This document shows, one piece after another, positions 5,741 to 19,046 of a stretch of DNA of 30,065 nucleotides. Numbering within the stretch: the stretch's first letter is position 1; every line of letters starts with the position of its first letter. Position numbers and translations under genes: made by a program. Source of the DNA: Verrucomicrobiales bacterium (lineage in GTDB: Bacteria; Verrucomicrobiota; Verrucomicrobiia; Verrucomicrobiales; SKLO01). Under the pieces are notes generated by a model, which was not told the DNA's origin, did not search any database, and saw only the letters and a list, made by a program, of their open reading frames with translations. The stretch lies in NCBI GenBank assembly GCA_007123195.1, contig SKLO01000508.1:1-30065 (forward strand). The letters run 5' to 3'.

Positions 5741-6208
5741 CGGCCGAGCGGGTGTTGTGGTAGGAAATAGTGGTGAGGGCAAGTCCGCGGCGGAGGAGTT
5801 CCGGACGCGACCGCCGCCCTGCGGCCGGGCGCTGGCGGGGGCGGCGGTCTGGCGTGCCGTGCCTGGCCCTCTGCGCGGGGTTGACATCGACCGGCGATCC
5901 GGTCGGTCCCGGCAGGCAACTGGCGCGGTGCGCGTGCCCCGCGGCGACATCCGGAACCTCGTCCGCGGGGCTTCATGCCGCGTTCCATGCCTTCCTTGTG
6001 CGATGCCTCACCGGCCTGTGGTCCGGCTGTGCGGCGCCTTGCCTGCGTGGTGAGGGACGGGAGCGGGCTCCCCGGCAATCCCCCGGCGGGAATATGCGAA
6101 TAGTCTCACAAATTGGTTGACGGGTTGATCGGTGACTTGTTAGAAGCCCTTGACGGGGATGAGTGGATCCCTGATCAGGCTGAGCCATGAAACCAATCAC
6201 CCCAGCTC

Positions 6209-7957
6209 TTGCAAGACATGAAAACCATCGCATCCAACACTCAAGCCGCTGATCCCCCGCCGCCGTCAATCTGCAGGCAGCGCCTTTTTCCCGGCAGAAT
6301 GGCATTGGCCGTCGCGGTCTTCGCGTTTTTGGCCGGCCAGGCCGTGGTCATGGGGCAACCTCCCGGGCGCGGAGGGCCGCCTGGATGGGAGCGCGTGCTG
6401 GTGCTGTTCGAGGCCGAGCCGGGACCGGCAGAGCGCGCCATGGTGAAAGGTTTCGGGGGCAGCATCGAGCGCGAGTTCCAGATCGTGCCCGCGGTGGCGG
6501 CGTCGCTGCCGCCGGGTGCCTCGAACGAGCTGCGGCGATCGCCACTGGTGCGTGTCGTTGAGCCGGACATCGAGGTCACCGGGACCGACATCGACAACAC
6601 CTGGGGGGTCAAGCGGATCGGGGCCGGCCCGGTTCACGACGGCACCTTTGGCCAGGATGCCCAACCGGTGTTGGGTACGGGTGTCAGGGTGGCGGTGCTG
6701 GACACGGGGATCGATTACAATCACCCCGAGCTGGCCGATTTTTTTGCCGGCGGCCACGATTTCGTCAATGGTGACAACGACCCGCTGGACGATCACGGCC
6801 ACGGCACCCATGTGTCGGGAACCGTGGCCGCTCTGCGGGACGGGAACGGCGTCGTCGGGGTCGCGCCCGAGGTCGACATCTTCGCGGTCAAGGTGCTGGA
6901 TTCCAACAACACCGGAGTGCTGAGCGACGTTCTAGCCGGCCTTGACTGGTGCCTTCAAAACGACATCGCGGTGGCCAATTTCAGCCTGGGAACCACCACA
7001 TTTCCAGGCATCACGGTTTGGAACGCCTTCGCCAACGCCGAACAGGCGGGTCTGGTGATGGTGGCGGCGGCCGGCAATGAAGGCGTGGGGACCGACACGG
7101 TCTGGTATCCGGCCAGGTTTGAAAGTGTGATCGCGGTGGCGGCGACCACGTCGTCGGACGGGCGCGCCGGCTTCTCAAGTACCGGTCCGGCGGTGGAACT
7201 GGCCGCCCCTGGAGAGGGGATCAACTCGACTACCCCCGGCGGCGGCTATGGCCTGGCCAGCGGCACGTCGATGGCGGCCCCCCACGTGACCGGGGTGGCG
7301 GCTCTGGTGATTGCGGCAGGAATCACCGACGCCAACGACAACGGACGCATCAACGACGAGGTCAGGATGGTGCTGCAAGTGACCGCCGAGGACCTCGGAC
7401 CTGAGGGCCGGGACGAGCACTTTGGTTATGGTTTGGTGGATGCCCAAATGGCCGTGCTTCTGGCATACGCCCCGGGGAACGGCACCGATCCTGATCCTGA
7501 TCCTGACCCTGATCCTGATCCTGAGCCGGACCCTGAGCCGGACCCTGAGCCGAGCTTCGATGCCCCCGAGGACCTGGAGGGTTCCGTGACGGGCAACACG
7601 GTGACCCTGCAGTGGGTGGACCGGTCCGATGTTGAAGACGGGTTTGAGATTGAGCTGGGGTTGGAAACCGGTGGCGTGATCACCTGGACCGGTTGGGCGA
7701 CCGTGCCCGCCGGCACCACCAGTTACAGCGACACGCTGGCCGATGGCAGCTACTGGTTCCGCGTTCGAGCCTTCCGTCTGTCGCCGGCCGAGGTCACCGA
7801 TTGGTCGAATGAGATCGAGCTGACGGTGGGCGCGTCCGCCGATGATCCGCCGCCTGGAGGTGGTCCGCCTCCGTGGGTGCCGCCTGGAGGTGGTCCGCCA
7901 TCGTGGGTGCCGCCCCAGGGACCTCCTCCGGTCGGCGTGCATGCTGCCGACCAGTGA
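6209..7957 (+). CDS. Secreted S8 subtilisin-like serine protease with propeptide, DP/EP linker, FN3-like domain and Pro/Gly-rich tail
   Basis: Catalytic motifs VLDTG, HGTHVSG and GTSMAAPHV, oxyanion AAGN, a hydrophobic signal segment, and an FN3-like segment (VTLQW...YWFRVRAF). The true start may be ATG 6299. Confidence 0.93.
   Translation: MQDMKTIASNTQAADPPPPSICRQRLFPGRMALAVAVFAFLAGQAVVMGQPPGRGGPPGWERVLVLFEAEPGPAERAMVKGFGGSIEREFQIVPAVAASLPPGASNELRRSPLVRVVEPDIEVTGTDIDNTWGVKRIGAGPVHDGTFGQDAQPVLGTGVRVAVLDTGIDYNHPELADFFAGGHDFVNGDNDPLDDHGHGTHVSGTVAALRDGNGVVGVAPEVDIFAVKVLDSNNTGVLSDVLAGLDWCLQNDIAVANFSLGTTTFPGITVWNAFANAEQAGLVMVAAAGNEGVGTDTVWYPARFESVIAVAATTSSDGRAGFSSTGPAVELAAPGEGINSTTPGGGYGLASGTSMAAPHVTGVAALVIAAGITDANDNGRINDEVRMVLQVTAEDLGPEGRDEHFGYGLVDAQMAVLLAYAPGNGTDPDPDPDPDPDPEPDPEPDPEPSFDAPEDLEGSVTGNTVTLQWVDRSDVEDGFEIELGLETGGVITWTGWATVPAGTTSYSDTLADGSYWFRVRAFRLSPAEVTDWSNEIELTVGASADDPPPGGGPPPWVPPGGGPPSWVPPQGPPPVGVHAADQ
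7487..7552 (+). repeat. Hexamer tandem repeat encoding a (DP)/(EP) linker
   Basis: Eleven 6-mers (GATCCT, GACCCT, GAGCCG) encoding DPDPDPDPDPDPEPDPEPDPEP. Confidence 0.9.
7850..7933 (+). repeat. 30-nt coding tandem repeat (PPGGGPP[P/S]WV twice plus a partial copy)
   Basis: Units at 7850-7879 and 7880-7909, with a degenerate unit at 7910-7933. Confidence 0.85.
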
Positions 7958-7971
7958 CCGTGCAGGTAGCG

Positions 7972-8006
7972 GGCCGCTGCCCTGCGGCTACGTCAGGGCA
8001 GCGGCC
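7972..8006 (+). terminator. Strong hairpin after the protease gene, probable terminator
   Basis: Perfect 13-bp stem GGCCGCTGCCCTG / CAGGGCAGCGGCC with a 9-nt loop, 15 nt after the stop. The U-tract is weak. Confidence 0.6.
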
Positions 8007-8297
8007 TTCCGCTGTGGTGGGCATTTTGCCCGTGTTCAAATCCTTTTCCGGCAGATTACGCCAGAGCGCAGTTGCGTTTTGGGGCCACTGACCGCGGCGG
8101 GATCGTCAGCCCGGCAGCCCTTGTTTCTACTCGGGTTGAATGGTTCCAGGTTGATGGAGGCATGGCACAAGGGATTCCCATGGCCCGGGCCGTGGCGGGT
8201 TCAGGTGGCGGAAGCAGACAACAGTCGCCCCCGCCGGACGATGCGGTTGCCCCGCCATCCGGTTCACGAGGCGTGGTTCCGGGCGAGGGGAACGGCC

Positions 8298-8326
8298 TTG
8301 ACAAATTCCCCGGCAACCCTACTAAT
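8298..8326 (+). promoter_or_regulatory. Putative sigma70-type promoter upstream of the ALDH operon
   Basis: Perfect TTGACA followed after 16-17 nt by TACTAA/ACTAAT. Confidence 0.45.
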
Positions 8327-8337
8327 GGTCTCTGGTG

Positions 8338-8439
8338 CGCGGGATTCCCCCACGACAGTTGGGGCCGGTGGCAACCTTTGAAGGGCGGCGAAGGTTTCTC
8401 CCGGGCCTGGTCAGGTGAGGGAGCATCAAGCGTCCTGCG
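8338..8439 (+). ncRNA. Candidate structured leader RNA (four-way junction), family unknown
   Basis: Hand-folded stems 8338-44/8433-39, 8348-52/8360-64, 8373-79/8390-96 and 8398-8402/8419-23, starting just after the predicted promoter. Confidence 0.25.
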
Positions 8440-8585
8440 GTTTCTGAGATTTTGTCGTAGAATGCCAATCTTCCTTTTCCGTGTGCCCGGGATGACAGCC
8501 AACCGCGCCCGGGCAATTCCCCGCCACAATCTGGCGCCCCGCCAATGAAATTCGCCACAACCCGCCTGCAGCCACCACTGACCCC

Positions 8586-10106
8586 ATGACCGCCCACCTC
8601 CAATCCAATCTCCCGGCGCTGCCGATCAGCGATGCCAATGCCGACTTCATCGGTCGCGCCCGCCACCACCTCATCGGCGGTCAGTGGGTGCCCTCGGCCA
8701 GTGGCGCCACCTTTGCCACCTTCGATCCCGCCACCGGCGACGTGCTGACCCACTGCGCCCAGGGCGAGGCCGAAGACATCGACCGCGCGGTCAAGGCCGC
8801 CCGCAAGGCGTTCGAATCCGGCCCGTGGAAAGCCCTGACAGCGTCCGAGCGGGGCCGCATCATCTGGAAGATCGGCGACCTGATGCTCGAACACGCCGAC
8901 GAATTGGCCGAATTGGAGGCACTGGACAACGGCAAGCCCAGGGCCGTCGCCCGCGCCGTCGACATCCCGTTGTCGGCCGACGCCTTCCACTACATGGCCG
9001 GCTGGGCCACCAAGATCACCGGCCAAACCATGCCCGTGTCCGTGCCCTATGCGCCGGGTGCCAGGTTTCACGCCTATTCCCTCAAGGAACCGGTCGGGGT
9101 GGTGGGGCAAATTATCCCGTGGAACTTCCCCCTGCTGATGGCGGCGTGGAAACTGGGCCCCGCCCTCGCCGCCGGCTGCACCCTGGTGCTGAAGCCGGCC
9201 GAGCAAACCCCGCTGACCGCGTTGCGCCTCGGCGAACTCATGATCGAGGCTGGCGTGCCCGACGGGGTGGTCAACATCGTTACCGGTGACGGCGAAAGCG
9301 CAGGCGCGCCCCTGGCCGCCCACCCCGATGTCGACAAGGTCGCCTTCACCGGCTCCAACGAAGTGGGCAAGCTGATTCTTCGGGCCGCGGCCGGCAATTT
9401 GAAGAAAGTCAGTCTAGAACTGGGAGGCAAGTCTCCCAACGTCATCTTCAAGGACGCGCCCGACCTGCCGGCCGCCATCGCCGGGGCTGCCAACGCCGTG
9501 TTTTTCAATCACGGCCAGTGCTGCGTCGCCGGCACCCGGTTGTTCGTCGAGCAGGATGTCTTCGACCAGGTTGTCGAGGGGGTGGTGGAGACGGCGGCCG
9601 GCATCAAGCTGGGTCCCGGCCTCGACGACGCCACCGAGATGGGGCCGCTGGTGTCCCAGGAACAACTTGAGCGCGTCACCGGCTACCTCGCCTCCGGGCG
9701 CGAGGACGGCGCCGACCTCCTCGTCGGCGGCGGGAGGCAGGGCGACCGTGGTTACTTCGTGCAGCCGACCGTCATCACCGGCACCCGTCCAGAGATGAAA
9801 GTCGTGCGCGAGGAGATTTTCGGCCCGGTGCTGGTGGCGGAACCGTTCACCGACGAGGCCGACCTGGTGCGCCGCGCCAACGACACCACCTACGGCCTTG
9901 CCGCCGCGGTCTGGACCAATGACGTCAGCCGTGCCCACCGCGTGGCCGCCGCCTACCGCGCCGGCACCGTATGGGTCAACTGCTACAATGTCTTCGATGC
10001 CGCCCTGCCGTTCGGCGGTTACAAGCAATCGGGCTGGGGCCGCGAGATGAGTGGTGAAGCGCTCGACCTGTATACCGAAACAAAAGCGGTGGTTGTGGGG
10101 TTGTGA
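8586..10106 (+). CDS. NAD(P)-dependent aldehyde dehydrogenase
   Basis: IIPWNFP, LKPAEQTP, FTGS, catalytic Glu in LELGGKSP, catalytic Cys in GQCCVAG, EEIFGPV and PFGGYKQSG. Confidence 0.95.
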   Translation: MTAHLQSNLPALPISDANADFIGRARHHLIGGQWVPSASGATFATFDPATGDVLTHCAQGEAEDIDRAVKAARKAFESGPWKALTASERGRIIWKIGDLMLEHADELAELEALDNGKPRAVARAVDIPLSADAFHYMAGWATKITGQTMPVSVPYAPGARFHAYSLKEPVGVVGQIIPWNFPLLMAAWKLGPALAAGCTLVLKPAEQTPLTALRLGELMIEAGVPDGVVNIVTGDGESAGAPLAAHPDVDKVAFTGSNEVGKLILRAAAGNLKKVSLELGGKSPNVIFKDAPDLPAAIAGAANAVFFNHGQCCVAGTRLFVEQDVFDQVVEGVVETAAGIKLGPGLDDATEMGPLVSQEQLERVTGYLASGREDGADLLVGGGRQGDRGYFVQPTVITGTRPEMKVVREEIFGPVLVAEPFTDEADLVRRANDTTYGLAAAVWTNDVSRAHRVAAAYRAGTVWVNCYNVFDAALPFGGYKQSGWGREMSGEALDLYTETKAVVVGL

Positions 10107-13100
10107 ACTGCTTCCAATGCCAGGCCGACAACCCCGTCGGAGCCAGGTTCTGCAGCCAATGCGGAAGTGAACTCAGGCGGCGTTGCGGCAACTGCCAGAC
10201 CGAGACCGGTCCGGGAGCGAAATTTTGCCACGAATGCGGCACGCTGTTGGACCGTCGCGCGCCAGAGAAGTCGCCGGGATCAGTCGCCGAAGTCCTCCCG
10301 TCCACCGCCGACGCCGACGCCATCCAGGCAGGAGCAGCCTCCGGCCCGGCCGCGTCCGAGGCCGCCATGCCGGAGCTTCGTCAGCTGACGGTGGTTTTCA
10401 GCGATGTGGTGTCCTTCACCCAGCTGTCGCAACGCATGGATCCCGAGGACTTCAATGCGGTCATGCACGACTACTACAACGTCTGCAAGGCGGTGTGCAA
10501 AAGCTACGAGGGCAGCGTGGCCAACTACCTCGGTGACGGCGTGCTCATGTTCTTCGGTTATCCCACTGCCCATGAGGACGACGCCGTGCGCGCGGTGCGC
10601 ACCGGTTTGGCCATCGTCGAGGGCGTGTCGGCGCTCAACCGGCGCGACTACCACACCGGTGGCATCAAGCTGCAGGTGCGCGTCGGCGTGCACACCGGCC
10701 CGATGATTGTCGGCGACGACCGCGGCGGCAACTGGCAGCAGATGGCCCTCGGTGAGACCCTCAACATCGCCGCCCGCGTGCAGGCGGTGGCGCAGTCGGA
10801 CACCGTGGTCACCAGCTCCGCGACCTACAAGCTCATCGAGGGTTTTTTCGCCTGCCGCAACCTCGGCATCCACTCCCTCAAGGGAGTTGAGCAGCCGATC
10901 GAAGTCTTCGGGGTGTCTCACGAAACCACCGCGCGCAGCCGGCTTGAGGCAGTCGGGCCCGGCGGGCTCACCCCGCTCACCGGTCGTGACGGCGAGGTCC
11001 GCCGCCTGCTTGAGTGTTGGCAACAGAACTACCAGGGGCGGGGCTGCGTCGTGCTTCTCAGTGGCGAGGCCGGCATCGGAAAGTCCAGGCTGGTCCAGCA
11101 CCTGAAGGAACATGTCGCCAACGTGCCCGGCGCCTGGCTGACGCCCTGCCAATGCTCATCTCATCACAAGAATACCGCGTTTCACCACTACGCCGACCTG
11201 CTTGAACGGGTTGTCCTGACGTTTGATCGCGGGGAAAGCTCCGCCGACCGGTTGGAGAAGCTTGAGGGTGTGTTGCACCAGTATGGCAGCGAGATCAATG
11301 TCACCCTTCCATCCCTCGCCGCCTTGCTGTCGATCCCGCCCGAGGCCGGCTACGTCCCGGTCGAGGACCCGCTCCGGCAGAAGCGCGCGATCATTGACAG
11401 CTACAAGCACATCCTCACGGTGCGATCAAGCAGGCAGCCGTTGCTGCTGGTGGTCGAGGACATCCACTGGGCCGACCCGTCGTCGCTCGAACTGCTGGAC
11501 GAGGTGGTGGCCATGGTCGCCGGGCACCGCGTCATGGCCCTGTTCACCTGCCGCCCCGAGTTTGAGTCGCGCTGGTCCGACCTGCCACATGTCAGGCACA
11601 TCGAGGTGAACCGGCTGGACCCGCAGCAGGTGCGGGTGATCTGCCGGCAGGTCGCGCGCGGCGCGCCGATCCCCGACAAACTGGTCGACCAGATCGTCAG
11701 CCGCACCGACGGGGTGCCGTTGTTCGTCGAGGAACTGACCAAGATGGTGATCGAGTCCGGCATGGCAAGCGCGCCGGTCGGCGGCCATCCCCCGGGCGGG
11801 ACACCTGCCGCGTTGTCGATCCCGACCACGCTGCAGGACTCGCTCATGGCCCGCCTCGACTGCCTGCACAAGGCCAAGGAGATCGCCCAGGTCGGTGCGG
11901 TGATCGGCCGCCGGTTCACCTTCGACCTCATGCGCAAGGTTTACCCGCTGGAGCAAAGCCTGCTGCGGCGCAGCCTCGACCAGTTGGTGGATTCCGAGCT
12001 GTTGTTTCAGTCCGGCGATGGACCGGACACAGCCTACGCCTTCAAGCACGCGCTGGTCCAGGAAGCCGCCTACCAGTCGCTGGTGAAGTCGCGCCGCCGC
12101 CATCATCATCGCGTCATCGCCCGGGCGCTTGAAGAGCACTTCCCCCACAATGCCGCGGCCGACATGGAGGTGCTGGCGCATCACTACACCGAGGCAGCGT
12201 TGCCATGGCAGGCGGTGCCCTACCTGCTGAAGGCGGGCGCCGCCGCCGCCAACCGCTCGGCCCACGCCGAGGCGATTTCGTTTCTCAGCCGTGCCATCGG
12301 CCTGCTGTCCAGGCTGCCGGACGATAACCGGCGCCGGGAGCACGAGATCGAGGCCCTGATCGCGCTCGGTGCCGCGCTGGCGGCTGCCAAGGGCTACGGC
12401 GACCACGATGTTGAGCGCACCTACACCCGCGCCCGCGACCTGAGCGAGCAGGGCGGCACTCCGGGTCAGTTGTTCCAGTCGCGCTATGGCTTGTGGCGGC
12501 TGCACATGCTGCGGGCCAACTACGACACCGCCACCCGTCAGGGCGAGGAGCTGCTGGAGCTGGCCACGCGCCAGGAGAACCGGTCGTTCCTCATCGCTGC
12601 CCATCGCGCGCTTGGCGCCACCCTGTTCTACCGGGGCCGCTTCCATCAGTCCCACAAACACGTCAACAGCGTCATCGCGGTCACCACCACCGGCCACGAC
12701 CAGGACGGCGACACGCTGGTGCGGGACATCTACGATGTGGTCGATCCCCGTGTCACCTGCCGCTCCTACCTTTCGTGGCTTCACTGGATGCTTGGAAGGA
12801 TCGGCCTGGCGCGGGAGGAAAGCCGCCGCGCCATCACCCTGGCCGAACAGCTGCAGCACCCTTTTTCCATCGCCCTGGCGCTGAGCTTCGCCAGCTGGTT
12901 GGAACAGTTCTGCGGCGACACCGGGGCGGTCGGTGAGCTCGCCAGCAGGGCCGAGGCCCACTGCCGGCGGCACGGGTTCCCGTTCTGGATCGGCTGGAAC
13001 CAGGTCATGCTCGGATGGGTCGCCGGTCACGACCCGGAACGCAGCGATGAGGCGGTGTCGATGATCCGCGCGGGACTGGACCATTGGCGCGAGAACGGCT

Positions 13101-13537
13101 CCCATCTCGGCCGCGGCTACTTTCTTTGCTTGCTGGCGGATACCCATATGCGCCGCGGTGAATGGGACCTCGGTCATCACGCGCTGGAGCAAGCCGAAGC
13201 CTTCTCCGGTGAAACCGATGAATGCTACTGGGAAGCCGAGCGACTGCGGCTGCAGGGCGAGCTGTTGCTGGGGCAGGGGGGGGCTCCTGAGGCCGTCGAG
13301 AGATTGTTCCGGCAGGCCATTGCCCGCTCGCGCGAACAGTCCGCCCGGCTGCTTGAACTGCGCGCCATCACCAGCCTGGCGCGGCTCGCCGGCAACGCCC
13401 GGTCCGGCTCCGGACAGGGGGCGGGTCCGACCGTCAGCGTCCGCGACGAGCTGGCCGCGGTGCTAGGGGGCTTTGAACACGAGCCGGAAACCGCCGACAT
13501 CCTGGACGCGCGCGAACTGCTCGCCGGGTGTGGTTGA
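10103..13537 (+). CDS. Double zinc ribbon / class III nucleotide cyclase / AAA ATPase / TPR-like multidomain protein
   Basis: Four CxxC pairs at the N-terminus, cyclase motifs FSDVVSFT, LGDG and NIAAR, Walker A GEAGIGKS, Walker B VVEDIHWAD and a long helical repeat C-terminus. GTG start overlaps the ALDH stop. Confidence 0.92.
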   Translation: MNCFQCQADNPVGARFCSQCGSELRRRCGNCQTETGPGAKFCHECGTLLDRRAPEKSPGSVAEVLPSTADADAIQAGAASGPAASEAAMPELRQLTVVFSDVVSFTQLSQRMDPEDFNAVMHDYYNVCKAVCKSYEGSVANYLGDGVLMFFGYPTAHEDDAVRAVRTGLAIVEGVSALNRRDYHTGGIKLQVRVGVHTGPMIVGDDRGGNWQQMALGETLNIAARVQAVAQSDTVVTSSATYKLIEGFFACRNLGIHSLKGVEQPIEVFGVSHETTARSRLEAVGPGGLTPLTGRDGEVRRLLECWQQNYQGRGCVVLLSGEAGIGKSRLVQHLKEHVANVPGAWLTPCQCSSHHKNTAFHHYADLLERVVLTFDRGESSADRLEKLEGVLHQYGSEINVTLPSLAALLSIPPEAGYVPVEDPLRQKRAIIDSYKHILTVRSSRQPLLLVVEDIHWADPSSLELLDEVVAMVAGHRVMALFTCRPEFESRWSDLPHVRHIEVNRLDPQQVRVICRQVARGAPIPDKLVDQIVSRTDGVPLFVEELTKMVIESGMASAPVGGHPPGGTPAALSIPTTLQDSLMARLDCLHKAKEIAQVGAVIGRRFTFDLMRKVYPLEQSLLRRSLDQLVDSELLFQSGDGPDTAYAFKHALVQEAAYQSLVKSRRRHHHRVIARALEEHFPHNAAADMEVLAHHYTEAALPWQAVPYLLKAGAAAANRSAHAEAISFLSRAIGLLSRLPDDNRRREHEIEALIALGAALAAAKGYGDHDVERTYTRARDLSEQGGTPGQLFQSRYGLWRLHMLRANYDTATRQGEELLELATRQENRSFLIAAHRALGATLFYRGRFHQSHKHVNSVIAVTTTGHDQDGDTLVRDIYDVVDPRVTCRSYLSWLHWMLGRIGLAREESRRAITLAEQLQHPFSIALALSFASWLEQFCGDTGAVGELASRAEAHCRRHGFPFWIGWNQVMLGWVAGHDPERSDEAVSMIRAGLDHWRENGSHLGRGYFLCLLADTHMRRGEWDLGHHALEQAEAFSGETDECYWEAERLRLQGELLLGQGGAPEAVERLFRQAIARSREQSARLLELRAITSLARLAGNARSGSGQGAGPTVSVRDELAAVLGGFEHEPETADILDARELLAGCG

Positions 13538-13810
13538 GTTCGGGTCATACAGACCGAGAATTTCCCGAAACACGCTTGACATCCGCGCACAAAACGATTC
13601 TCTGTTAGGAAAATCCGGCGCCTCGCTTCGGCGACGATGGGCAGGCCTGCTTGTCCCGATGCCCGCACACGCGGTTGAGCACGCTTCTCATCACGCCGTC
13701 GGCCGCCCGCGGCGTCTTGTCTGACAAATACACCTTCCAAGCGCCTGAGACGTGGCAGCCGATCACCCTGCAACAGGATCCCCGACAGACCTACAACCCC
13801 AGACCAAGTC

Positions 13811-14734
13811 ATGGCCCGATCCCTACAAGATGCACCGCACGGACAAACTCCCTGGCAGGGGTTGAAACCGAAACCGCCGGCCCAGTTCTCGCAGTGGCCG
13901 TTCTATTACGCCTCGCTGCAGTGCAACTGGGTCTACTGGTATGTCGATCCCGAGACCGCGCGGCCCTACGTCGAGCAGGCCAACGGCAACCCGACCGGTC
14001 TCAGGGTCGCCCTGTTTCCCGTTGAGGAACACGGAATCACTGTCGACAAGGCGGTCGTGCTGTTGAACTTCCAGCGCTACACCGCCCACTACACCAATGC
14101 CCTCGGCACCACCAACGAGGTTGAGTTCAACGTCATCGCCTATCCCGCCAACCGATCCCCGGGGGTTCCCTACATGCCGCTCAAGGACTTCCTTGACGGC
14201 AAGGACCAGACCAAGACCCTCGGCCACCTCCGCCTGCACGTCGCCGCCGACAACGAGGTCGCGGTCGAGGCCGGGCGTGCGGTGTTCGGTGAACCAAAAT
14301 TTTTCGGTCAGTTCGTCTACGATGTGCCAACGCTCAACGGGCCGCCCAACTGCGACTGGAAGGTGCGGCTGGTCAACCCGGAAAACGGCAACGAATTCGT
14401 CTACGACATGCACGCCGCGCTTGCCGGACTGGAGTTCTGGCCCACCAACTGCACCCCGATCCCCGAATTCGCCACCGGACTGGGACGCACGGTGTGGACC
14501 CGCTGGACCATCGCCGGCCAATTCCAGACCGCCATGCTTGACCGCGATCAGGACCGGCAGCGTGTCAGCCTGCGCATTGGCGACAACGACTTCGTCATGT
14601 CCAGGGACCTGCGCGCCCTGATCGGCGATCACAACCCCGCCGTCGCCGCCCAGACTTTTGTCTCCCTGCCGGCCTGCATCGAGCCGGAGGGGTTCTACGT
14701 GGACGGCATTGACCGGGAGGATGCTTATGGCTGA
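13811..14734 (+). CDS. Acetoacetate decarboxylase (ADC)-fold family protein
   Basis: DNEVAVEAGRAVFGEPK resembles the ADC-superfamily GRExWGxPK Schiff-base lysine motif (Lys codon 14297-14299). An NEVEF segment precedes it. Confidence 0.65.
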   Translation: MARSLQDAPHGQTPWQGLKPKPPAQFSQWPFYYASLQCNWVYWYVDPETARPYVEQANGNPTGLRVALFPVEEHGITVDKAVVLLNFQRYTAHYTNALGTTNEVEFNVIAYPANRSPGVPYMPLKDFLDGKDQTKTLGHLRLHVAADNEVAVEAGRAVFGEPKFFGQFVYDVPTLNGPPNCDWKVRLVNPENGNEFVYDMHAALAGLEFWPTNCTPIPEFATGLGRTVWTRWTIAGQFQTAMLDRDQDRQRVSLRIGDNDFVMSRDLRALIGDHNPAVAAQTFVSLPACIEPEGFYVDGIDREDAYG

Positions 14735-15200
14735 AGCCTGCCCCGACGACTTGCTCGCGCTCAGTGTGGCGCTCACCGGTTACGACCGCGCCTCCTTGTG
14801 GGCGACCGGTTGCGTGCCGCTCTACCTTGCCCAGCTTGCCGACGTGGCCGGCCCGGACCTGCTGGCGCGGCTTGAAACAGCCGGACGCGAGCACGCGGCC
14901 GCGGTCGGGGCCGACCCCGACGCGGCCGACCGGCAGTTGCGTCAGCGCGTGCTGGTGGATCCCGACCTCGGGCCGCTGGCCCGCTCGTTGATCCAGCTCT
15001 GGTATCTCGGCCAGTGGACCCCGATGCCGCCGGAATGGGTCCAGCGCAACGGTAGCAAACTCCGCGACACCGCCCGCATCCTCTCAAGCCGCGCTTACCG
15101 CGAGGGGTTGGTCTGGGACACCATCGGCGCCCACCCGATGGGCGCCAAGGCGCCGGGCTTCGGGTCCTGGGCGCTGCCACCTGCCGGAGAAACCCCATGA
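14727..15200 (+). CDS. Small (gamma-type) subunit of a FAD-dependent sugar/sorbitol dehydrogenase family
   Basis: LARSLIQLWYLGQW and AYREGLVWDTIGAHPMGAKAPGFGSWALPP match the FAD-SLDH small-subunit pattern. GGGAGG RBS lies 6 nt before ATG 14727. Confidence 0.7.
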   Translation: MAEACPDDLLALSVALTGYDRASLWATGCVPLYLAQLADVAGPDLLARLETAGREHAAAVGADPDAADRQLRQRVLVDPDLGPLARSLIQLWYLGQWTPMPPEWVQRNGSKLRDTARILSSRAYREGLVWDTIGAHPMGAKAPGFGSWALPPAGETP

Positions 15201-15201
15201 G

Positions 15202-15229
15202 TTGGAAATTGGAGATTGGAAATTGGAGA
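15202..15229 (+). repeat. Intergenic heptamer tandem repeat TTGGA(A/G)A x4
   Basis: TTGGAAA TTGGAGA TTGGAAA TTGGAGA begins 1 nt after the small-subunit stop. Confidence 0.85.
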
Positions 15230-15354
15230 TGTGGTTCTGATGATGAACCACGTTGGGGTCCTGCGCGTCCCACCCATCGAGTGCCCGCCGATGCGTTCCA
15301 CATGCCGTTGCAACGCAGGCGCTCATATCAATTCGGATGCCCAGTTCCCCTGCC

Positions 15355-17196
15355 ATGAACGATGCCCACCCCACGCACTACGACGCCGTCGTTGTCGGCG
15401 CCGGAATCTCCGGCGCCCTGGTCGCCAAGCAGCTCGCCGCCCGTGGCCATCACGTGCTGATCCTTGAAGCCGGTGCCGACCGTGGCGAGGACGCCGCGAC
15501 TTATCGCAGTTATCACACCAACTTCCAGCTGACCGAGCTGAAGACCCCCAACTCACCTTACCCGCCCAATCCCAGCGCCCCCTCGCCATCCGTGCTCGAC
15601 ATCACCTCCATCGCGGCCGGTAAACCGGACAGCAACGGCTACTTCGTCCAGCGCGGGCCGAATCCGTTCGGCTCCAATTACACCCGCGTGGTCGGCGGCA
15701 CCACCATGCACTGGCTCGGCACCTGCCTGCGCATGCAGCCGGTCGACTTCCGCATCCACAGCGAATTCGGCCGCGGTGTCGACTGGCCGCTCGGCTACGA
15801 CGACCTTGCGCCCTACTACGAGCGGGCGGAATGGGAGATCGGTGTCGCCGGCGACAAGGCGGAGAACGAGTTCCACGGCATCCACTTCGCGCCGGACTAC
15901 GACTACCCGATGGAACCGATCCCCAAGTCGTTCTCCGATCGTTGGTTCGAACAAGGAGTGGCCGGCATGAAGGTGCGCCTGAACAACGGCGAGGACAAAG
16001 TGCTGGCCGTGTCCGCCACCCCGCAGGGCCGGAACTCGACCCCGCGACCGGGACGCCACAAGGTCGGCGGTGAAACCGCCGGACCCTACGGCAGCGCCGG
16101 CAACACCGGCCCGTTCTACGCGTTCCAGGGCCAGCGTTGCGAGGGCAATTCGTCCTGCATCCCGTTGTGCCCGGTGCAGGCCAAATACAGCGCGCTCAAG
16201 ACCCTGCAGCAGGCCCGCCAGCAAAAAGGCCGGGTCGAACTGCGCACCCAGTCGGTGGTGTCCAAGGTGGACACCGATCCCGCCAGCGGGCGCGTCACCG
16301 GCATCACCTACAAGCGCTACGAGTTTTCGGGCGCGCCGGTATGGGAGATGAAGCACGTCACCGCCAAGGTCTACGTGCTCGCGACCAACGCGATCGAAAA
16401 CGCCAAGCTCGCGCTGGCCTCGGATCTTTGCCCTTCGTCAGGACAGTTGGGACGCAACCTGATGGACCATCCTTATGTGCTGACCTGGGGACTGGCACCG
16501 CGACCGGTGGGCGCGTTCCGCGGTCCCGGATCCACGGCCTCGATTCCCTCCCTGCGCGACGGCCGCTTCCGCACCGACACCGCAGCCACCCGGCTTGAAC
16601 TGGCCAACTGGGGCTGGAACTTCGCTGCCAACTCACCTTACTCCGATGTCCAACGGTTGGTCGGCCGCGACAACCTGTTCGGCGCCGCGCTGCGGGCCCG
16701 GCTGCGCGACGAAGTGCCGCGCCAGGTCCGCATCGGCATCATGCCCGAGCAATTGCCGTCCTCGGTCAACCGGGTCAGCATCGATCCCGCCTGGCGTGAC
16801 TCGCTGGGCGAACCGCGGCCGGTGATCGACTACAGTGTCGACGACTACTCGCGCGCCGGGGTGCTGCAGGCGCTCGACGTCACCCGGGCCGTGTTCGCCC
16901 GTCTCGGCATCGAGGACAGGTCGGTGGTCGACCCCTCGGCACCCGGTTACGTCACACTCGCAGGCCGCGGTTTTGTCTACTTTGGCGCCGGCCACAACGC
17001 CGGCACCCACCGCATCGGCCTGTCGCCGCGCGACAGCGTGACCAACGTCGACGGTCGCTCGTGGGATCACGACAACCTTTGGCTGGTTGGCTGCGGCGCC
17101 ATGCCCACCATCGCCACATCCAACCCCACCCTGACCATGACCGCACTCGTGCTCAAGGCGGCCGATTCCCTCCAGCGCGAGTTGGAAGGGGCCTGA
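15355..17196 (+). CDS. GMC family FAD oxidoreductase, large subunit with Cys cluster
   Basis: VVVGAGISG FAD motif, VVGGTTMHW, CEGNSSCIPLCP, GRNLMDHP, GHNAGTHRIG and TSNPTLT. ATG 15337 is an alternative start. Confidence 0.9.
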   Translation: MNDAHPTHYDAVVVGAGISGALVAKQLAARGHHVLILEAGADRGEDAATYRSYHTNFQLTELKTPNSPYPPNPSAPSPSVLDITSIAAGKPDSNGYFVQRGPNPFGSNYTRVVGGTTMHWLGTCLRMQPVDFRIHSEFGRGVDWPLGYDDLAPYYERAEWEIGVAGDKAENEFHGIHFAPDYDYPMEPIPKSFSDRWFEQGVAGMKVRLNNGEDKVLAVSATPQGRNSTPRPGRHKVGGETAGPYGSAGNTGPFYAFQGQRCEGNSSCIPLCPVQAKYSALKTLQQARQQKGRVELRTQSVVSKVDTDPASGRVTGITYKRYEFSGAPVWEMKHVTAKVYVLATNAIENAKLALASDLCPSSGQLGRNLMDHPYVLTWGLAPRPVGAFRGPGSTASIPSLRDGRFRTDTAATRLELANWGWNFAANSPYSDVQRLVGRDNLFGAALRARLRDEVPRQVRIGIMPEQLPSSVNRVSIDPAWRDSLGEPRPVIDYSVDDYSRAGVLQALDVTRAVFARLGIEDRSVVDPSAPGYVTLAGRGFVYFGAGHNAGTHRIGLSPRDSVTNVDGRSWDHDNLWLVGCGAMPTIATSNPTLTMTALVLKAADSLQRELEGA

Positions 17197-17235
17197 AACC
17201 CTCACCTTGCCGCCCCTGGCCTGACATGACATCCC

Positions 17236-18318
17236 ATGAGCATGGAATCCGAACGTGACGAATTGAGATCGCTGATGGCGCAGGCCATCCGCATCGAGCT
17301 GACCACCATTCCGCCTTACGCCACCGCCGCCTACACCATCTGCGAGGTCGGCCAGTATGACCGCATCGCGCCGACCGAGGTCAATGCCGAACCGCTCGAG
17401 GTGATCCGCCAGGTCATGATCGAGGAGATGCTGCACATGACCCTGGCCGCCAACATCCTCAATGCGCTCGGCGGCAGCGTGATCCTCAACCAACCCTCCG
17501 CCATTCCATCCTATCCCTGCCGGCTGTTGCCCTCGGGCAAGGGGCCGGAAGTCCGGTTGCGACGGTTCAGCAGGGACCAGGTGCGGGTGTTCAGGGAAAT
17601 CGAGCGCGCGCCGGTGAACTTCGACAAGTTGAGCAACGGCGATTGCCTGCGGGCGGAGACCATCGGCGGCTTTTACCATTGCGTGAGAGAGAAACTGCGT
17701 GCCCTGTGCCGCACGCATCGGCCCGATCAGGTTTTTTGCGGCGACCCCGCCTGGCAGGTCGGGGCGGAACACTACTGGGGCGCCGGCGGCCAGGCCTTCG
17801 CCGTAACCGATGAGGCCAGCGCCCTGCGCGCCATCGACATGATCGTCGACGAAGGCGAGGGCGCTGATCTCGGCGGCAGGGCGGGGGACGGCGACCCGGT
17901 TCCGGGCACCGGCGAGGAAGACGTGGCCCACTTCTTCAAGTTCAATGAGATTCTCCTGTCGCGTTACTACCGCGCGGATGACCATCTCGGCTCGCCGCCC
18001 ACCGGGGCGGACCTCGCGGTCGACTGGAGCGCCGTGCACCCCATGCGCGACGATCCCAGGGCCGAGGACTTCGCCCATCTGCCCGAGGTGCACGCGCGCA
18101 TGCTGGCGTTTGATCAACTCTACACCGGCTTCCTGCTTGCCTTGCACGAGGCCTTCAACGGCCGGCCCGAGCGCCTGCGGGAGGCGGTTCCGGTGATGAT
18201 CAAACTGCGGCACGAAGCCATGGCCCTGGTGCGCATCCCGGTCAACGATCAGGGGGAAACCGCCGGCCCCGGCTGGACCTTCCGCCCCATATATTCCACA
18301 CCAGAGCGCGCCTCTTGA
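17236..18318 (+). CDS. Stand-alone ferritin-like protein of the VioB C-terminal-domain type
   Basis: AIRIELTTIPPY, IEEMLHMTLAANILNALGG, TIGGFY, IVDEGEG and AHFFKF follow the Pfam Ferritin-like (VioB-related) pattern. Confidence 0.8.
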   Translation: MSMESERDELRSLMAQAIRIELTTIPPYATAAYTICEVGQYDRIAPTEVNAEPLEVIRQVMIEEMLHMTLAANILNALGGSVILNQPSAIPSYPCRLLPSGKGPEVRLRRFSRDQVRVFREIERAPVNFDKLSNGDCLRAETIGGFYHCVREKLRALCRTHRPDQVFCGDPAWQVGAEHYWGAGGQAFAVTDEASALRAIDMIVDEGEGADLGGRAGDGDPVPGTGEEDVAHFFKFNEILLSRYYRADDHLGSPPTGADLAVDWSAVHPMRDDPRAEDFAHLPEVHARMLAFDQLYTGFLLALHEAFNGRPERLREAVPVMIKLRHEAMALVRIPVNDQGETAGPGWTFRPIYSTPERAS

Positions 18319-18480
18319 TGGCGCCATGACAGGCCGCGTCGGCCCACTGCCCACTTTCCTGCTGGCGAACCCGGTGCCACGGGCTAGCGTAGTGACCACT
18401 GCCCCGGTGCTTGTTGGATCAATCGATCGGGCTGGGTGAATACGTCGTCCTTGGCGGCGTGTTGCTGCACCATTGAGCCA

Positions 18481-18837
18481 ATGAACGGACTGCAATCCTA
18501 CATGAACCATGTCGCCGACGGCATCGCGTTGATCGGCGGCGCAGTGATCCTGCTGGGCACCCTGGTGGCGGTGGTCGGGTTGGTGCGCACCGAGATCGGG
18601 GCGTTGCGCGGCGGTCGCGTTCTCCGTCAGCGGCAGGTCCTGCGCCACCGGTTCGGCTATTACATCCTGCTCGGGCTGGAATTCCTCATCGCCGCCGATG
18701 TGATCCGCACCCTGATCCATCCCGGCATGGATGAACTGGTGACTCTGGGCGTGATCGTCGCCATCCGCACCGTCATCAGCCTGACGCTCAATTGGGAACT
18801 GACCCGCCGGCAGCGGGCGAGCGGGGACCCAACCTGA
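18481..18837 (+). CDS. DUF1622-like small membrane protein
   Basis: Hydrophobic helices with GYYILLGLEFLIAADVIRT and IVAIRTVISLTLNWE. Start uncertain (18481 or 18502). Confidence 0.8.
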   Translation: MNGLQSYMNHVADGIALIGGAVILLGTLVAVVGLVRTEIGALRGGRVLRQRQVLRHRFGYYILLGLEFLIAADVIRTLIHPGMDELVTLGVIVAIRTVISLTLNWELTRRQRASGDPT

Positions 18838-19046
18838 AACCTGATCGCAAATGGCGCGTGGCCATCGATTCCGGTGGTGATTCCCGTGCGCCCCGCACGA
18901 AAGAGATTGCCCGGTCAGATGGTTTTATGCGAGGTAAGGTCGCGTCGCTTATGAAAATCCCCGTCTCACCCCCCGCCAGGGACGGCCGCACGAACGTGCG
19001 TCCCGTCGATCGTTCAAATCGCGAACCAGGGCCCGTCGATGGCTAC

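Follow-up and report, generated by a model that had tools for sequence, protein, structure and literature searches.

A GMC dehydrogenase gene cluster with a ferritin-like protein in the place of the cytochrome: a candidate cytoplasmic oxidation system

The window analysed here, a stretch of 30,065 nucleotides from a Verrucomicrobiales bacterium, carries at 13811-18318 four co-directional and tightly linked genes for an ADC-fold protein, a small dehydrogenase subunit, a GMC dehydrogenase and a ferritin-like protein (FER) (Table 1). A preliminary description had listed these genes in this order on the plus strand, and all of them are present where it placed them. Our preferred reading, to which we give a probability of about 0.55, is that they encode a soluble cytoplasmic oxidation machine, where the Fe-S cluster of the GMC protein would feed a dimetal centre in FER and the ADC-fold partner would work on a carbonyl intermediate. 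The gene arrangement is far beyond what chance would give, because the same order is found again in dozens of genomes, and our literature searches on a module of GMC and ferritin-like proteins found no paper describing such a set. Periplasmic FAD/3Fe-4S dehydrogenases underlie the direct-electron-transfer biosensors for glucose and fructose, and to our knowledge a multiheme cytochrome c is the only electron exit they have. A cytoplasmic branch with FER would, if true, reveal a natural acceptor of a new kind for the surface 3Fe-4S cluster, give a first role to PF12902, which is also a domain of the violacein and rebeccamycin synthases, and set apart an ADC-fold family that is rare and always accompanies the module.

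Table 1. Features of the module and its surroundings (window positions).
Feature	Position	Strand	Basis and remarks
Zinc-ribbon / class III nucleotide cyclase / AAA_16 STAND ATPase / TPR protein (cyclase-STAND)	10103..13537	+	Pfam domains
ADC-fold protein, 307 aa	13811..14734	+	AlphaFold model and Foldseek; small, separate family
Small subunit, 157 aa, FdhS/SldS (PF12318-related) type, no twin-arginine signal	14727..15200	+	Ribosome-binding site, orthologues, fold match
Copy of a dispersed ~130-nt repeat	15201..15336	+	Between small-subunit and GMC genes; contains TTGGAAATTGGAGA twice
GMC FAD dehydrogenase catalytic subunit	15337..17196 (start ATG 15337 or 15355)	+	GMC_oxred_N and GMC_oxred_C
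Ferritin-like protein (FER), PF12902, 360 aa	17236..18318	+	Pfam

The systems compared are the direct-electron-transfer (DET) FAD dehydrogenases, namely the Burkholderia cepacia FAD-GDH gamma-alpha-beta complex (BcGDH; 6a2u, 8grj, 8hdd), Gluconobacter FdhSCL (7w2j, 8jej) and the FAD-sorbitol dehydrogenase SldSLC. The GMC protein is a close structural-family relative of the alpha subunit of BcGDH and of the large subunit of fructose dehydrogenase (phmmer E 1e-75 against 6a2u_B and 1e-58 against 7w2j_A), which counts in favour of the proposed mechanism. The catalytic subunits of these complexes are homologous to the window protein and have the three 3Fe-4S cysteines in common with it, and it retains their covalent-FAD His motif and catalytic His/Asn. 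C296, C302 and C306 (647-aa frame; encoded at 16138-16170) align column for column with C212, C218 and C222 of BcGDH, which are the 3Fe-4S ligands there (PMC6719666), and this triad is a putative 3Fe-4S site in the window protein as well. A Cys cluster lies in the same loop of every full-length GMC protein adjacent to FER: all 55 of the class-1 GMCs have RCxGNxxCxPxCP, in the divergent class-2 GMCs the motif of this region is C-x5-C-x2-C, and in the type found at locus L005 it is CxxCxxCx4C. Where BcGDH has a sugar-recognising Asn-Asn before the catalytic His, the window protein has Ala-Gly, and the substrate is therefore probably not glucose; BcGDH makes its alpha-gamma disulfide with C213, where the window protein has a Glu.

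The true start of the small subunit is the ATG at 14727, which follows GGGAGG and gives an overlap of 8 nt with the ADC stop. A Pfam search with the window protein gave no match, while 17 of its 44 orthologues match PF12318 (FAD-SLDH; best E 1e-6), and the sole credible PDB match of its model is the small subunit of fructose dehydrogenase, 8jej_B (prob 0.89, TM 0.42-0.48). A homologous PF12318-related small subunit with the FdhS fold is thus common to the window and the DET complexes, and with BcGDH it also has the gene order small-large-third subunit in common. The canonical trimer type, with a Tat-bearing small subunit, does not fit, since the signal that exports the DET complexes to the periplasm by hitch-hiking is missing from the small subunit of the window, and the enzyme should accordingly be cytoplasmic. 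A sequence scan of the four proteins found no signal peptide, membrane helix or hydrophobic segment, RR motif or CxxCH, and the same is true for a Tat/RR motif, transmembrane segment or CxxCH in the 44 aligned small-subunit orthologues and for CxxCH or an export signal in the class-1 GMC orthologues (n=55).

The absence of a cytochrome from the module, which had been proposed from the start, agrees with these scans of the four proteins and the GMC orthologues. The position that the cytochrome gene has in BcGDH is indeed taken by the ferritin-like gene, so that in comparison with the DET complexes there is no multiheme cytochrome c, and the third and fourth genes are instead a PF12902 ferritin-like one and an ADC-fold one. 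It could be argued that the true partner is a c-type cytochrome encoded elsewhere and that the adjacency of FER is incidental. The assembly is only 83% complete, and the genome has many CxxCH proteins, with at least 20 PSCyt1/PSCyt2/PSD1 paralogues and an ORF with four CxxCH motifs, all of which would leave room for such a partner. The GMC protein and the small subunit cannot, however, meet a periplasmic cytochrome c, because no export signal is present here or in 44-55 orthologues, and a cognate cytochrome elsewhere is thereby topologically implausible. The operon moreover has no CxxCH gene, and the adjacency of FER is conserved across phyla, and we consider an incidental FER to be extremely improbable. 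No cytochrome family was found among the conserved neighbours of the FER loci.

FER matches PF12902 with 167.2 bits (cut-off 22.3) over profile positions 2-220 of 221. E21, E64-x-x-H67, E208 and H232 do not vary among 15 diverse sequences and are candidate ligands of a dimetal centre. Helices A and B can be aligned to the bacterioferritin helices that hold the di-iron site, with E21, E64 and H67 at its ligand positions. The structural-genomics entry 3hl1 ("ferritin like protein") belongs to the same Pfam family and aligns at the E, EMLH, GEG and H positions (E 2.9e-21), although it is a stand-alone protein of 317 aa and the similarity, about 25-30%, is limited to the N-terminal 240 residues. 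The residue between the candidate ligands in the E-M-x-H motif, M65, is also invariant, and by alignment this motif matches that of bacterioferritin, whose Met is a heme-b ligand; a heme in FER would be pure speculation. Bacterioferritin offers a second parallel, as there too an Fe-S protein, the [2Fe-2S] ferredoxin Bfd, supplies electrons to a ferritin-like four-helix bundle, but FER is no 18-kDa subunit of the cage-forming kind. It has a large non-ferritin C-terminal half.

Membership of the ferritin-like superfamily and tight co-encoding with an Fe-S enzyme would also suit an iron store, where FER is an iron donor or an assembly or repair factor for the 3Fe-4S cluster and no redox partner at all. 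We find this very unlikely, since at 360 aa and with its C-terminal half FER does not resemble the ferritins that build cages, many FERs have no GMC beside them, and the fusions of FER to CDGSH/4Fe-4S, ADC-like and SnoaL domains would be unexpected for an iron store.

The comparative data come from a survey of 87 FER loci, 80 of them from species genomes. A class-1 GMC gene is directly upstream of FER in 55 of the 87, the gap between the two is at most 50 nt in 42 of 52 loci, and in 24 the genes overlap. The ferritin-like gene had been expected to co-occur with the GMC and small-subunit genes, and it does so strongly, in at least eight phyla. This trio is the constant core, around which the accessory genes vary: an ADC-like protein, two TIM-barrel proteins with or without GH63, or ABM/beta-barrel/BBE proteins. 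Across the relatives the identity is 40-77% for GMC and 34-77% for FER. The FERs that lack an adjacent GMC carry Fe-S domains of their own, CDGSH/Fer4_19, in 12 of 24 loci, and others are beside a Rieske ferredoxin, while such extensions occur in none of the 60 loci with an adjacent class-1 or class-2 Cys-triad GMC, a contrast for which Fisher p values overstate the significance because the loci are phylogenetically non-independent. The complementarity is imperfect as well, since in the L005/L006 type of locus a Cys-rich GMC occurs together with a FER that has an Fe-S extension; the small subunit there bears a Tat signal, and this variant may be periplasmic. That the ferritin-like protein could be an electron acceptor, as was suggested before, is strengthened by these independent fusions, which link FER to Fe-S electron carriers.

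A different use of FER would be to handle peroxide, as a catalase, peroxidase or peroxygenase, with the GMC protein being an O2-using oxidase whose H2O2 FER removes or uses. The five-ligand set E/ExxH/E/H presumably resembles that of manganese catalases, a likeness that would favour this explanation. The arrangement would parallel the pairs of a flavin oxidase and a PF12902-containing heme enzyme, RebO/RebD and VioA/VioB, and PF12902 recurs beside flavoprotein oxidases, as in the indolocarbazole clusters with an FAD tryptophan oxidase and a heme CPA synthase (PMC10851217) and in fungal lodA/lodB loci with PF12902 genes (PMC4417212). The Cys triad is however strict in every GMC linked to FER, which is sensible only if the electrons leave by the Fe-S cluster, and the Fe-S fusions of the GMC-less FERs indicate an input of electrons and not peroxide scavenging. 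The characterised 3Fe-4S relatives are, furthermore, dehydrogenases and not oxidases (PMC6719666), and peroxide handling is in our opinion quite unlikely. The chromopyrrolic-acid synthases themselves, VioB, RebD and StaD, share a naming with FER, PF12902 relatives being called "iminophenyl-pyruvate dimer synthase domain" proteins, and act downstream of a flavoprotein oxidase (PMC10851217). They are heme enzymes of about 1000 aa encoded in bisindole clusters, whereas FER has 360 aa, and no amino-acid or tryptophan oxidase gene was found in the window or the related loci. The label "VioB-type" thus holds for the shared Pfam/InterPro naming only, and FER is not a CPA synthase of that size.

The ADC-fold label also needs some care. 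The window protein scores 19.8 bits against the Pfam ADC family (PF06314), below the cut-off of 29.8, and only some of its orthologues have a precomputed PF06314 match, so at Pfam level the label fails. A profile search of PDB sequences with the family gave no match even at E 10, a search of 121 genomes for PF06314 members on which K163 could be mapped returned only weak DUF2071-like matches, and hhalign of the family against one of these gave a probability of 2%. The AlphaFold model (pLDDT 84.7) is on the other hand matched by Foldseek to 24 chains of the ADC superfamily (E 8e-12 to 8e-9, prob 1.0), the next match having E 0.09, and it is by this model and these matches that the label stands. 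Judged from the model, the protein has a real ADC double-barrel fold, yet it is no family member at Pfam level. The matches include acetoacetate decarboxylases (3bgt, 3bh2), MppR (4jm3), the aldolase-dehydratase Sbi00515 (4zbt) and Swit_4259 (5upb), with which it has the double barrel (TM 0.5-0.67) in common, but it is only 9-14% identical to them and about 50 residues longer. The window family has a Lys that is invariant and lies within G-x-P-K, together with invariant Arg and Glu. The invariant residues are K163 (codon 14297-14299, motif FGEPKF), R141, E103, E105, E161, D147 and Y33. K163 is unchanged in 25 ADC-like sequences and is kept as FGEPKF in FER fusion proteins, and from this invariance it is a putative Schiff-base lysine. 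The family is small, with only 250 representatives among 1.84 billion proteins, and in all contexts that we examined it occurs together with the GMC/FER module.

Fusion proteins of the types FER::ADC-like, FER::SnoaL::ADC-like and FER::SnoaL exist and are part of the case for our mechanism. Those that join FER to ADC-like or SnoaL domains also count against it, in that a pure electron sink explains them no better than does an enzyme that acts on a substrate. They bring forward another explanation, that the principal catalysis is done by FER and the ADC-fold protein, as a dimetal oxygenase or oxidase on a Schiff-base-bound intermediate, and that the GMC/small-subunit pair is only their reductase, drawing on a cheap donor. 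Diiron oxygenases of the ferritin-like kind that have an electron donor of their own, e.g. BioE, are well known, and the GMC-less FERs with reductase-like Fe-S domains of their own would agree with it. It overlaps with the explanation that we prefer in electron flow and reverses which protein defines the pathway. We regard it as rather unlikely, as the accessory enzymes differ by subtype while GMC and FER remain paired, and GMC is as conserved as FER.

The cytoplasmic oxidation machine that we favour starts from the observed homology, Cys triad, missing export signals, linkage and fusions, and its direction of electron flow, metal content, chemistry and substrate are our predictions. The four genes would form one operon. 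The GMC protein, stabilised by the signal-less FdhS/SldS-type small subunit, would oxidise an alcohol or hemiacetal and place two electrons on FAD, from where they would pass to the 3Fe-4S cluster at its surface. This cluster is the docking site of a triheme cytochrome c in the periplasmic relatives; here the electrons would instead go to FER, whose carboxylate/histidine dimetal centre would reduce O2 or peroxide, either as a plain electron sink or while oxidising a pathway intermediate. The ADC-fold protein would be physically associated with FER, and most likely it holds or converts the carbonyl product by means of Lys163. A bolder version is a self-contained cytoplasmic dehydrogenase-oxygenase, in which electrons from the alcohol would run over FAD/3Fe-4S to the PF12902 dimetal centre, perhaps via a Met-ligated heme b at E-M-x-H as in bacterioferritin, and this centre would activate O2 to oxidise an intermediate that the ADC-fold partner binds as a Schiff base. 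We offer it tentatively, as an improbable scheme, but if true it would amount to an enzyme architecture of a new kind and provide the first mechanistic frame for PF12902, the domain in VioB/RebD included.

An aldehyde dehydrogenase (ALDH) had been thought to complete a route from alcohol via aldehyde to acid. Comparison gives no backing for that route, as the ALDH adjoins the cluster in no relative examined, and we reject it as a member of the pathway.

The distribution of the module is patchy: it is present in one of 401 genomes of the host phylum, the GMC gene being absent from the other 400, and yet it extends over at least eight phyla. Its rarity in the host phylum supports transfer. The genome itself is PVC-type in look and the module genes are 65-78% identical to those of Rhodobacterales, which makes a transfer likely. 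The module thus appears to move horizontally, and this suggests a metabolic trait that is specialised but portable. Cultured carriers, which make the module directly testable, are Pikeienuella piscinae, Ruegeria profundi, Shewanella, Streptomyces griseochromogenes and Burkholderia.

In relatives the small-subunit and GMC genes overlap, and the dispersed repeat, of which the genome has 13 copies, has here been inserted between them; it shows no covariation and no Rfam match. A promoter/terminator scan of 13400-18900 gave no signal above the shuffled background, and an Rfam scan of 13500-18900 no match.

The cyclase-STAND gene is located upstream of the module and outside its coordinates. Orthologues with 32-40% identity adjoin the cluster in Ruegeria, Pseudorhodobacter and three Actinomycetota loci, so that this gene has been kept with the cluster in two phyla, and within the genome of the window the orthologues from these neighbouring loci match this gene only. 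A Streptomyces locus has an AAA_16-GerE protein in its place. The cyclase-STAND protein is likely a linked regulator or signal transducer, and in the proposed mechanism it would be the sensor or regulator of the system.

The genes of the cluster and the related features are collected in the table. In the window, whose GC content is 65-72%, third-position GC singles out one coding frame for each gene. The four gene labels of the preliminary description were all correct, but the acetoacetate decarboxylase (ADC) label holds at the level of the fold only, and the small subunit diverges from the rest of its family. Homologues of the PF12902 ferritin-like protein (FER) were first met in Rhodobacterales, and in three neighbourhoods the same four genes occurred, the stop of one overlapping the start of the next. 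A scan of one genome per species gave more than 578 relatives of FER, and the best 80 loci were analysed, or 87 together with the earlier ones. A gene for the FAD dehydrogenase catalytic subunit (GMC, 40-77% identical) lies directly upstream of FER in 55 of these 87 loci, and the proposal that these families occur together has thus held up. The gap between the two genes is at most 50 nt in 42 of 52 loci, with an overlap in 24, and a signal-less small subunit is present in 48 non-redundant loci, either ahead of GMC or behind FER. The carriers are labelled as Alpha-, Beta- and Gammaproteobacteria, Gemmatimonadota, Acidobacteriota, Actinomycetota, Bacteroidota, Cyanobacteriota, Verrucomicrobiota and Chloroflexota, so the linkage is both tight and wide. 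We found no description of a module of GMC and a ferritin-like protein in full-text literature searches.

Clustering of all ORFs of the loci shows that the trio of small subunit, GMC and FER is constant while the accessory genes vary. Type A, to which the window belongs, has the order ADC-like, small subunit, GMC, FER, with or without a cyclase-STAND gene. Type B has GMC, FER and small subunit followed by two xylose-isomerase-like TIM-barrel proteins and sometimes a GH63-like hydrolase, and type C, in Flavobacterium, has small subunit, GMC, FER, an ABM protein, a beta-barrel protein and a BBE oxidase. In type D a different small protein and a divergent (class-2) GMC precede FER, and type E has FER without any GMC.

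Judged by sequence, the module is clearly homologous to the direct-electron-transfer (DET-type) FAD dehydrogenases, cysteine triad included. GMC matches the alpha subunit of Burkholderia cepacia glucose dehydrogenase (BcGDH) with an E-value of 1e-75 and the large subunit of Gluconobacter fructose dehydrogenase with 1e-58, and R-C296-E-G-N-S-S-C302-I-P-L-C306-P of GMC aligns on T-C212-C-G-N-N-N-C218-M-P-I-C222-P of BcGDH alpha. In the BcGDH structure the 3Fe-4S cluster is held by C212, C218 and C222, and C213 is disulfide-linked to the gamma subunit (PMC6719666); the position of C213 is Glu in the window GMC. GMC retains the GGTTxHW motif as well as the catalytic His and Asn. Ala-Gly stands in place of the two glucose-recognising Asn residues, a replacement that argues against glucose as the substrate. 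The small protein of the window has no Pfam match by itself, but 17 of 44 orthologues match PF12318 (FAD-sorbitol dehydrogenase small subunit), and the sole credible PDB match of its AlphaFold model (pLDDT 88.6) is the fructose dehydrogenase small subunit 8jej_B (probability 0.89, TM 0.42-0.48). The module would work like a DET-type complex, but it has neither a Tat-borne small subunit nor a multiheme cytochrome c, both among the features that define that family, and we therefore regard it as a new variant and not as a member.

A search of the four proteins for twin-arginine motifs, CxxCH and segments hydrophobic enough to span a membrane found none in any of them, and the earlier claim that the module has no cytochrome c stands. 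A Tat signal was found in 0 of 44 small-subunit orthologues, and the GMC orthologues start a few residues ahead of the FAD-binding glycine motif. The lack of export signals in GMC and small subunit leads us to predict that the enzyme resides in the cytoplasm, out of reach of a c-type cytochrome as partner. The source genome (83% complete) has one copy of each of the four genes, and no further GMC of the window type was found in it.

All 55 class-1 GMCs, the window-like type, have the motif RCxGNxxCxPxCP. The class-2 GMCs, 24-27% identical to that of the window, have C-x5-C-x2-C at the same place, and a third type, at locus L005, has CxxCxxCx4C, so that every full-length GMC adjacent to FER has a Cys cluster in the 3Fe-4S loop. 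Where FER has no GMC next to it, 12 of 24 loci encode it as a fusion to zf-CDGSH/Fer4_19/zf-CDGSH, and such FERs also occur next to a Rieske ferredoxin. An Fe-S extension is present in 0 of 60 FERs adjoining a class-1 or class-2 GMC (Fisher p ~1e-7, an overstatement given the kinship among the loci). Together these observations speak for a coupling of FER to Fe-S electron carriers. The GMC-less fusions are a separate use of the PF12902 domain. The exception is L005/L006, with an Fe-S-extended FER, a Cys-rich GMC and a PF13618 small subunit with a clear RRAFLR signal; this variant of the module is possibly periplasmic.

In FER itself the PF12902 domain is complete (167 bits) and precedes a conserved C-terminal half of ~120 residues; the one relative with a solved structure is 3hl1, a "ferritin like protein" from structural genomics (E 3e-21). 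E21, E64-x-x-H67, E208 and H232 are invariant across sequences that are 38-69% identical, and in an alignment with bacterioferritins E21 and E64/H67 fall on the di-iron helices A and B. The five-ligand pattern resembles that of manganese catalases, and the invariant Met65 gives an E-M-x-H motif like that of bacterioferritin, where this Met ligates heme b. FER could hold two metal ions, and possibly a heme as well.

With 19.8 bits the product of the first gene falls short of the Pfam ADC cut-off of 29.8 bits, and its model (pLDDT 84.7) matches 24 chains of the ADC superfamily at E 8e-12 to 8e-9, with no other match below 0.09. The family has very few members: among 1.84 billion representative proteins, a profile search gave 250 at E ≤1e-3 and 111 at ≤1e-30, and it did not reach canonical ADCs. 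In every context inspected the gene lies within the module, namely at 24 loci, in Shewanella (small-GMC-GMC-FER::SnoaL-ADC-like) and in Streptomyces griseochromogenes (small-GMC-FER-ADC-like). The 150 best representatives include five FER::ADC-like fusions, one of them with a SnoaL_2 linker, and there are one SnoaL::ADC-like and one FAD_binding_4::ADC-like fusion. FER and the ADC-fold protein therefore work together physically, which fits a FER that acts on a small-molecule intermediate, or close to one, instead of being an electron sink only. K163 (in FGEPKF), R141, E103, E105, E161, D147 and Y33 are invariant, and in a partial Pfam alignment, which covers residues 23-172 and profile positions 8-118, K163 appears to lie near the position of the ADC Schiff-base lysine.

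We infer a route in which electrons would pass from FAD over the 3Fe-4S cluster to FER, which would reduce O2 or peroxide or oxygenate an intermediate, and in which the ADC-fold protein would handle the carbonyl product with Lys163. The TIM barrels and GH63-like hydrolase of type B hint at sugars or glycosides as substrates, and the neighbours of type C and the fusions (ABM, BBE, SnoaL) at cyclic or aromatic ketones.

Features of the window and of related loci and proteins
Feature	Position	Strand	Remarks
ALDH gene	8586-10106		upstream of the four-gene cluster
Cyclase-STAND gene	10103-13537		1144-aa zinc-ribbon/cyclase/AAA_16/TPR protein; upstream of cluster; single-copy; related loci L054, L060, L085, L002, L007, L013, L016, L079
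ADC-like gene	13811-14734	+	ADC fold
Small-subunit gene	14727-15200	+	ATG start, GGGAGG box ahead; 8-nt overlap with ADC-like stop
Dispersed repeat	15201-15336		~130 nt; between small-subunit and GMC genes
GMC gene	15337 (or 15355)-17196	+	ATG start; GMC family
FER gene	17236-18318	+	PF12902; 39 nt after GMC gene
DUF1622 membrane protein and G8/CEMIP beta-helix protein			downstream of cluster
L005/L006 variant	L005:5718-9698 (and L006)		Tat-signal PF13618 small subunit; GMC called as two ORFs, possibly a frameshift; FER::zf-CDGSH/Fer4_19/zf-CDGSH
FER::CDGSH/Fer4_19 fusions without GMC neighbour	FER at ~8001-9700		L021, L023, L024, L027, L031-L033, L038, L048, L058, L076; mostly Actinomycetota, often near NmrA-like and ECF sigma-factor genes
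Second module type	~5900-9050		L026, L059, L066, L068, L080; unrelated ~160-aa signal-less small protein, class-2 GMC of 530-550 aa, short FER
Fusion proteins (FER::ADC-like, FER::SnoaL_2::ADC-like, SnoaL_2::ADC-like, FAD_binding_4::ADC-like)			P0360, P0392, P0429, P0435, P0451, P0363, P0385
PSCyt1/PSCyt2/PSD1 paralogues	e.g. L111:63-3263		contig C405 of the source genome (G000), and about 19 other short contigs

Full-length orthologues of the cyclase-STAND protein (32-40% identity) adjoin the cluster in Ruegeria and Pseudorhodobacter and are encoded on the opposite strand at three Actinomycetota loci, and each of them matches only the window gene in the source genome. At a Streptomyces locus (L089) its place is taken by an AAA_16-GerE protein, which would have the same role. 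Type A is thus accompanied by a STAND-type sensor, and the cyclase-STAND protein is co-inherited with that cluster in Alphaproteobacteria and Actinomycetota. The ALDH, whose stop overlaps the GTG start of the cyclase-STAND gene, had been proposed as a pathway partner, a role we no longer assign to it as no related locus has an ALDH beside the cluster; nor does one adjoin the cyclase gene in any of the related loci that carry it.

The source genome has at least 20 paralogous PSCyt1/PSCyt2/PSD1 ("planctomycete cytochrome C") proteins of 900-1300 aa, and the closest relatives of the class III FBPase of the window are from Verrucomicrobiales MAGs (61-63%), so the host is of PVC type. Pikeienuella and other Rhodobacterales have counterparts of the four operon proteins with 65-78% identity, and GMC was found in 0 of 400 other genomes sampled from the phylum of the host. 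Horizontal acquisition of the operon is the simplest reading of these comparisons, and the probable one. The small-subunit and GMC genes overlap in the relatives but are split in the window by the dispersed repeat, which opens with TTGGAAATTGGAGA twice (heptad TTGGARA units), matches no Rfam family and shows no covariation in favour of a structure. It has 13 copies in the source genome, with 69-90% identity. A repeat of the host genome inside the operon ties the contig to that genome, and suggests that the operon has been resident in the host for some time.
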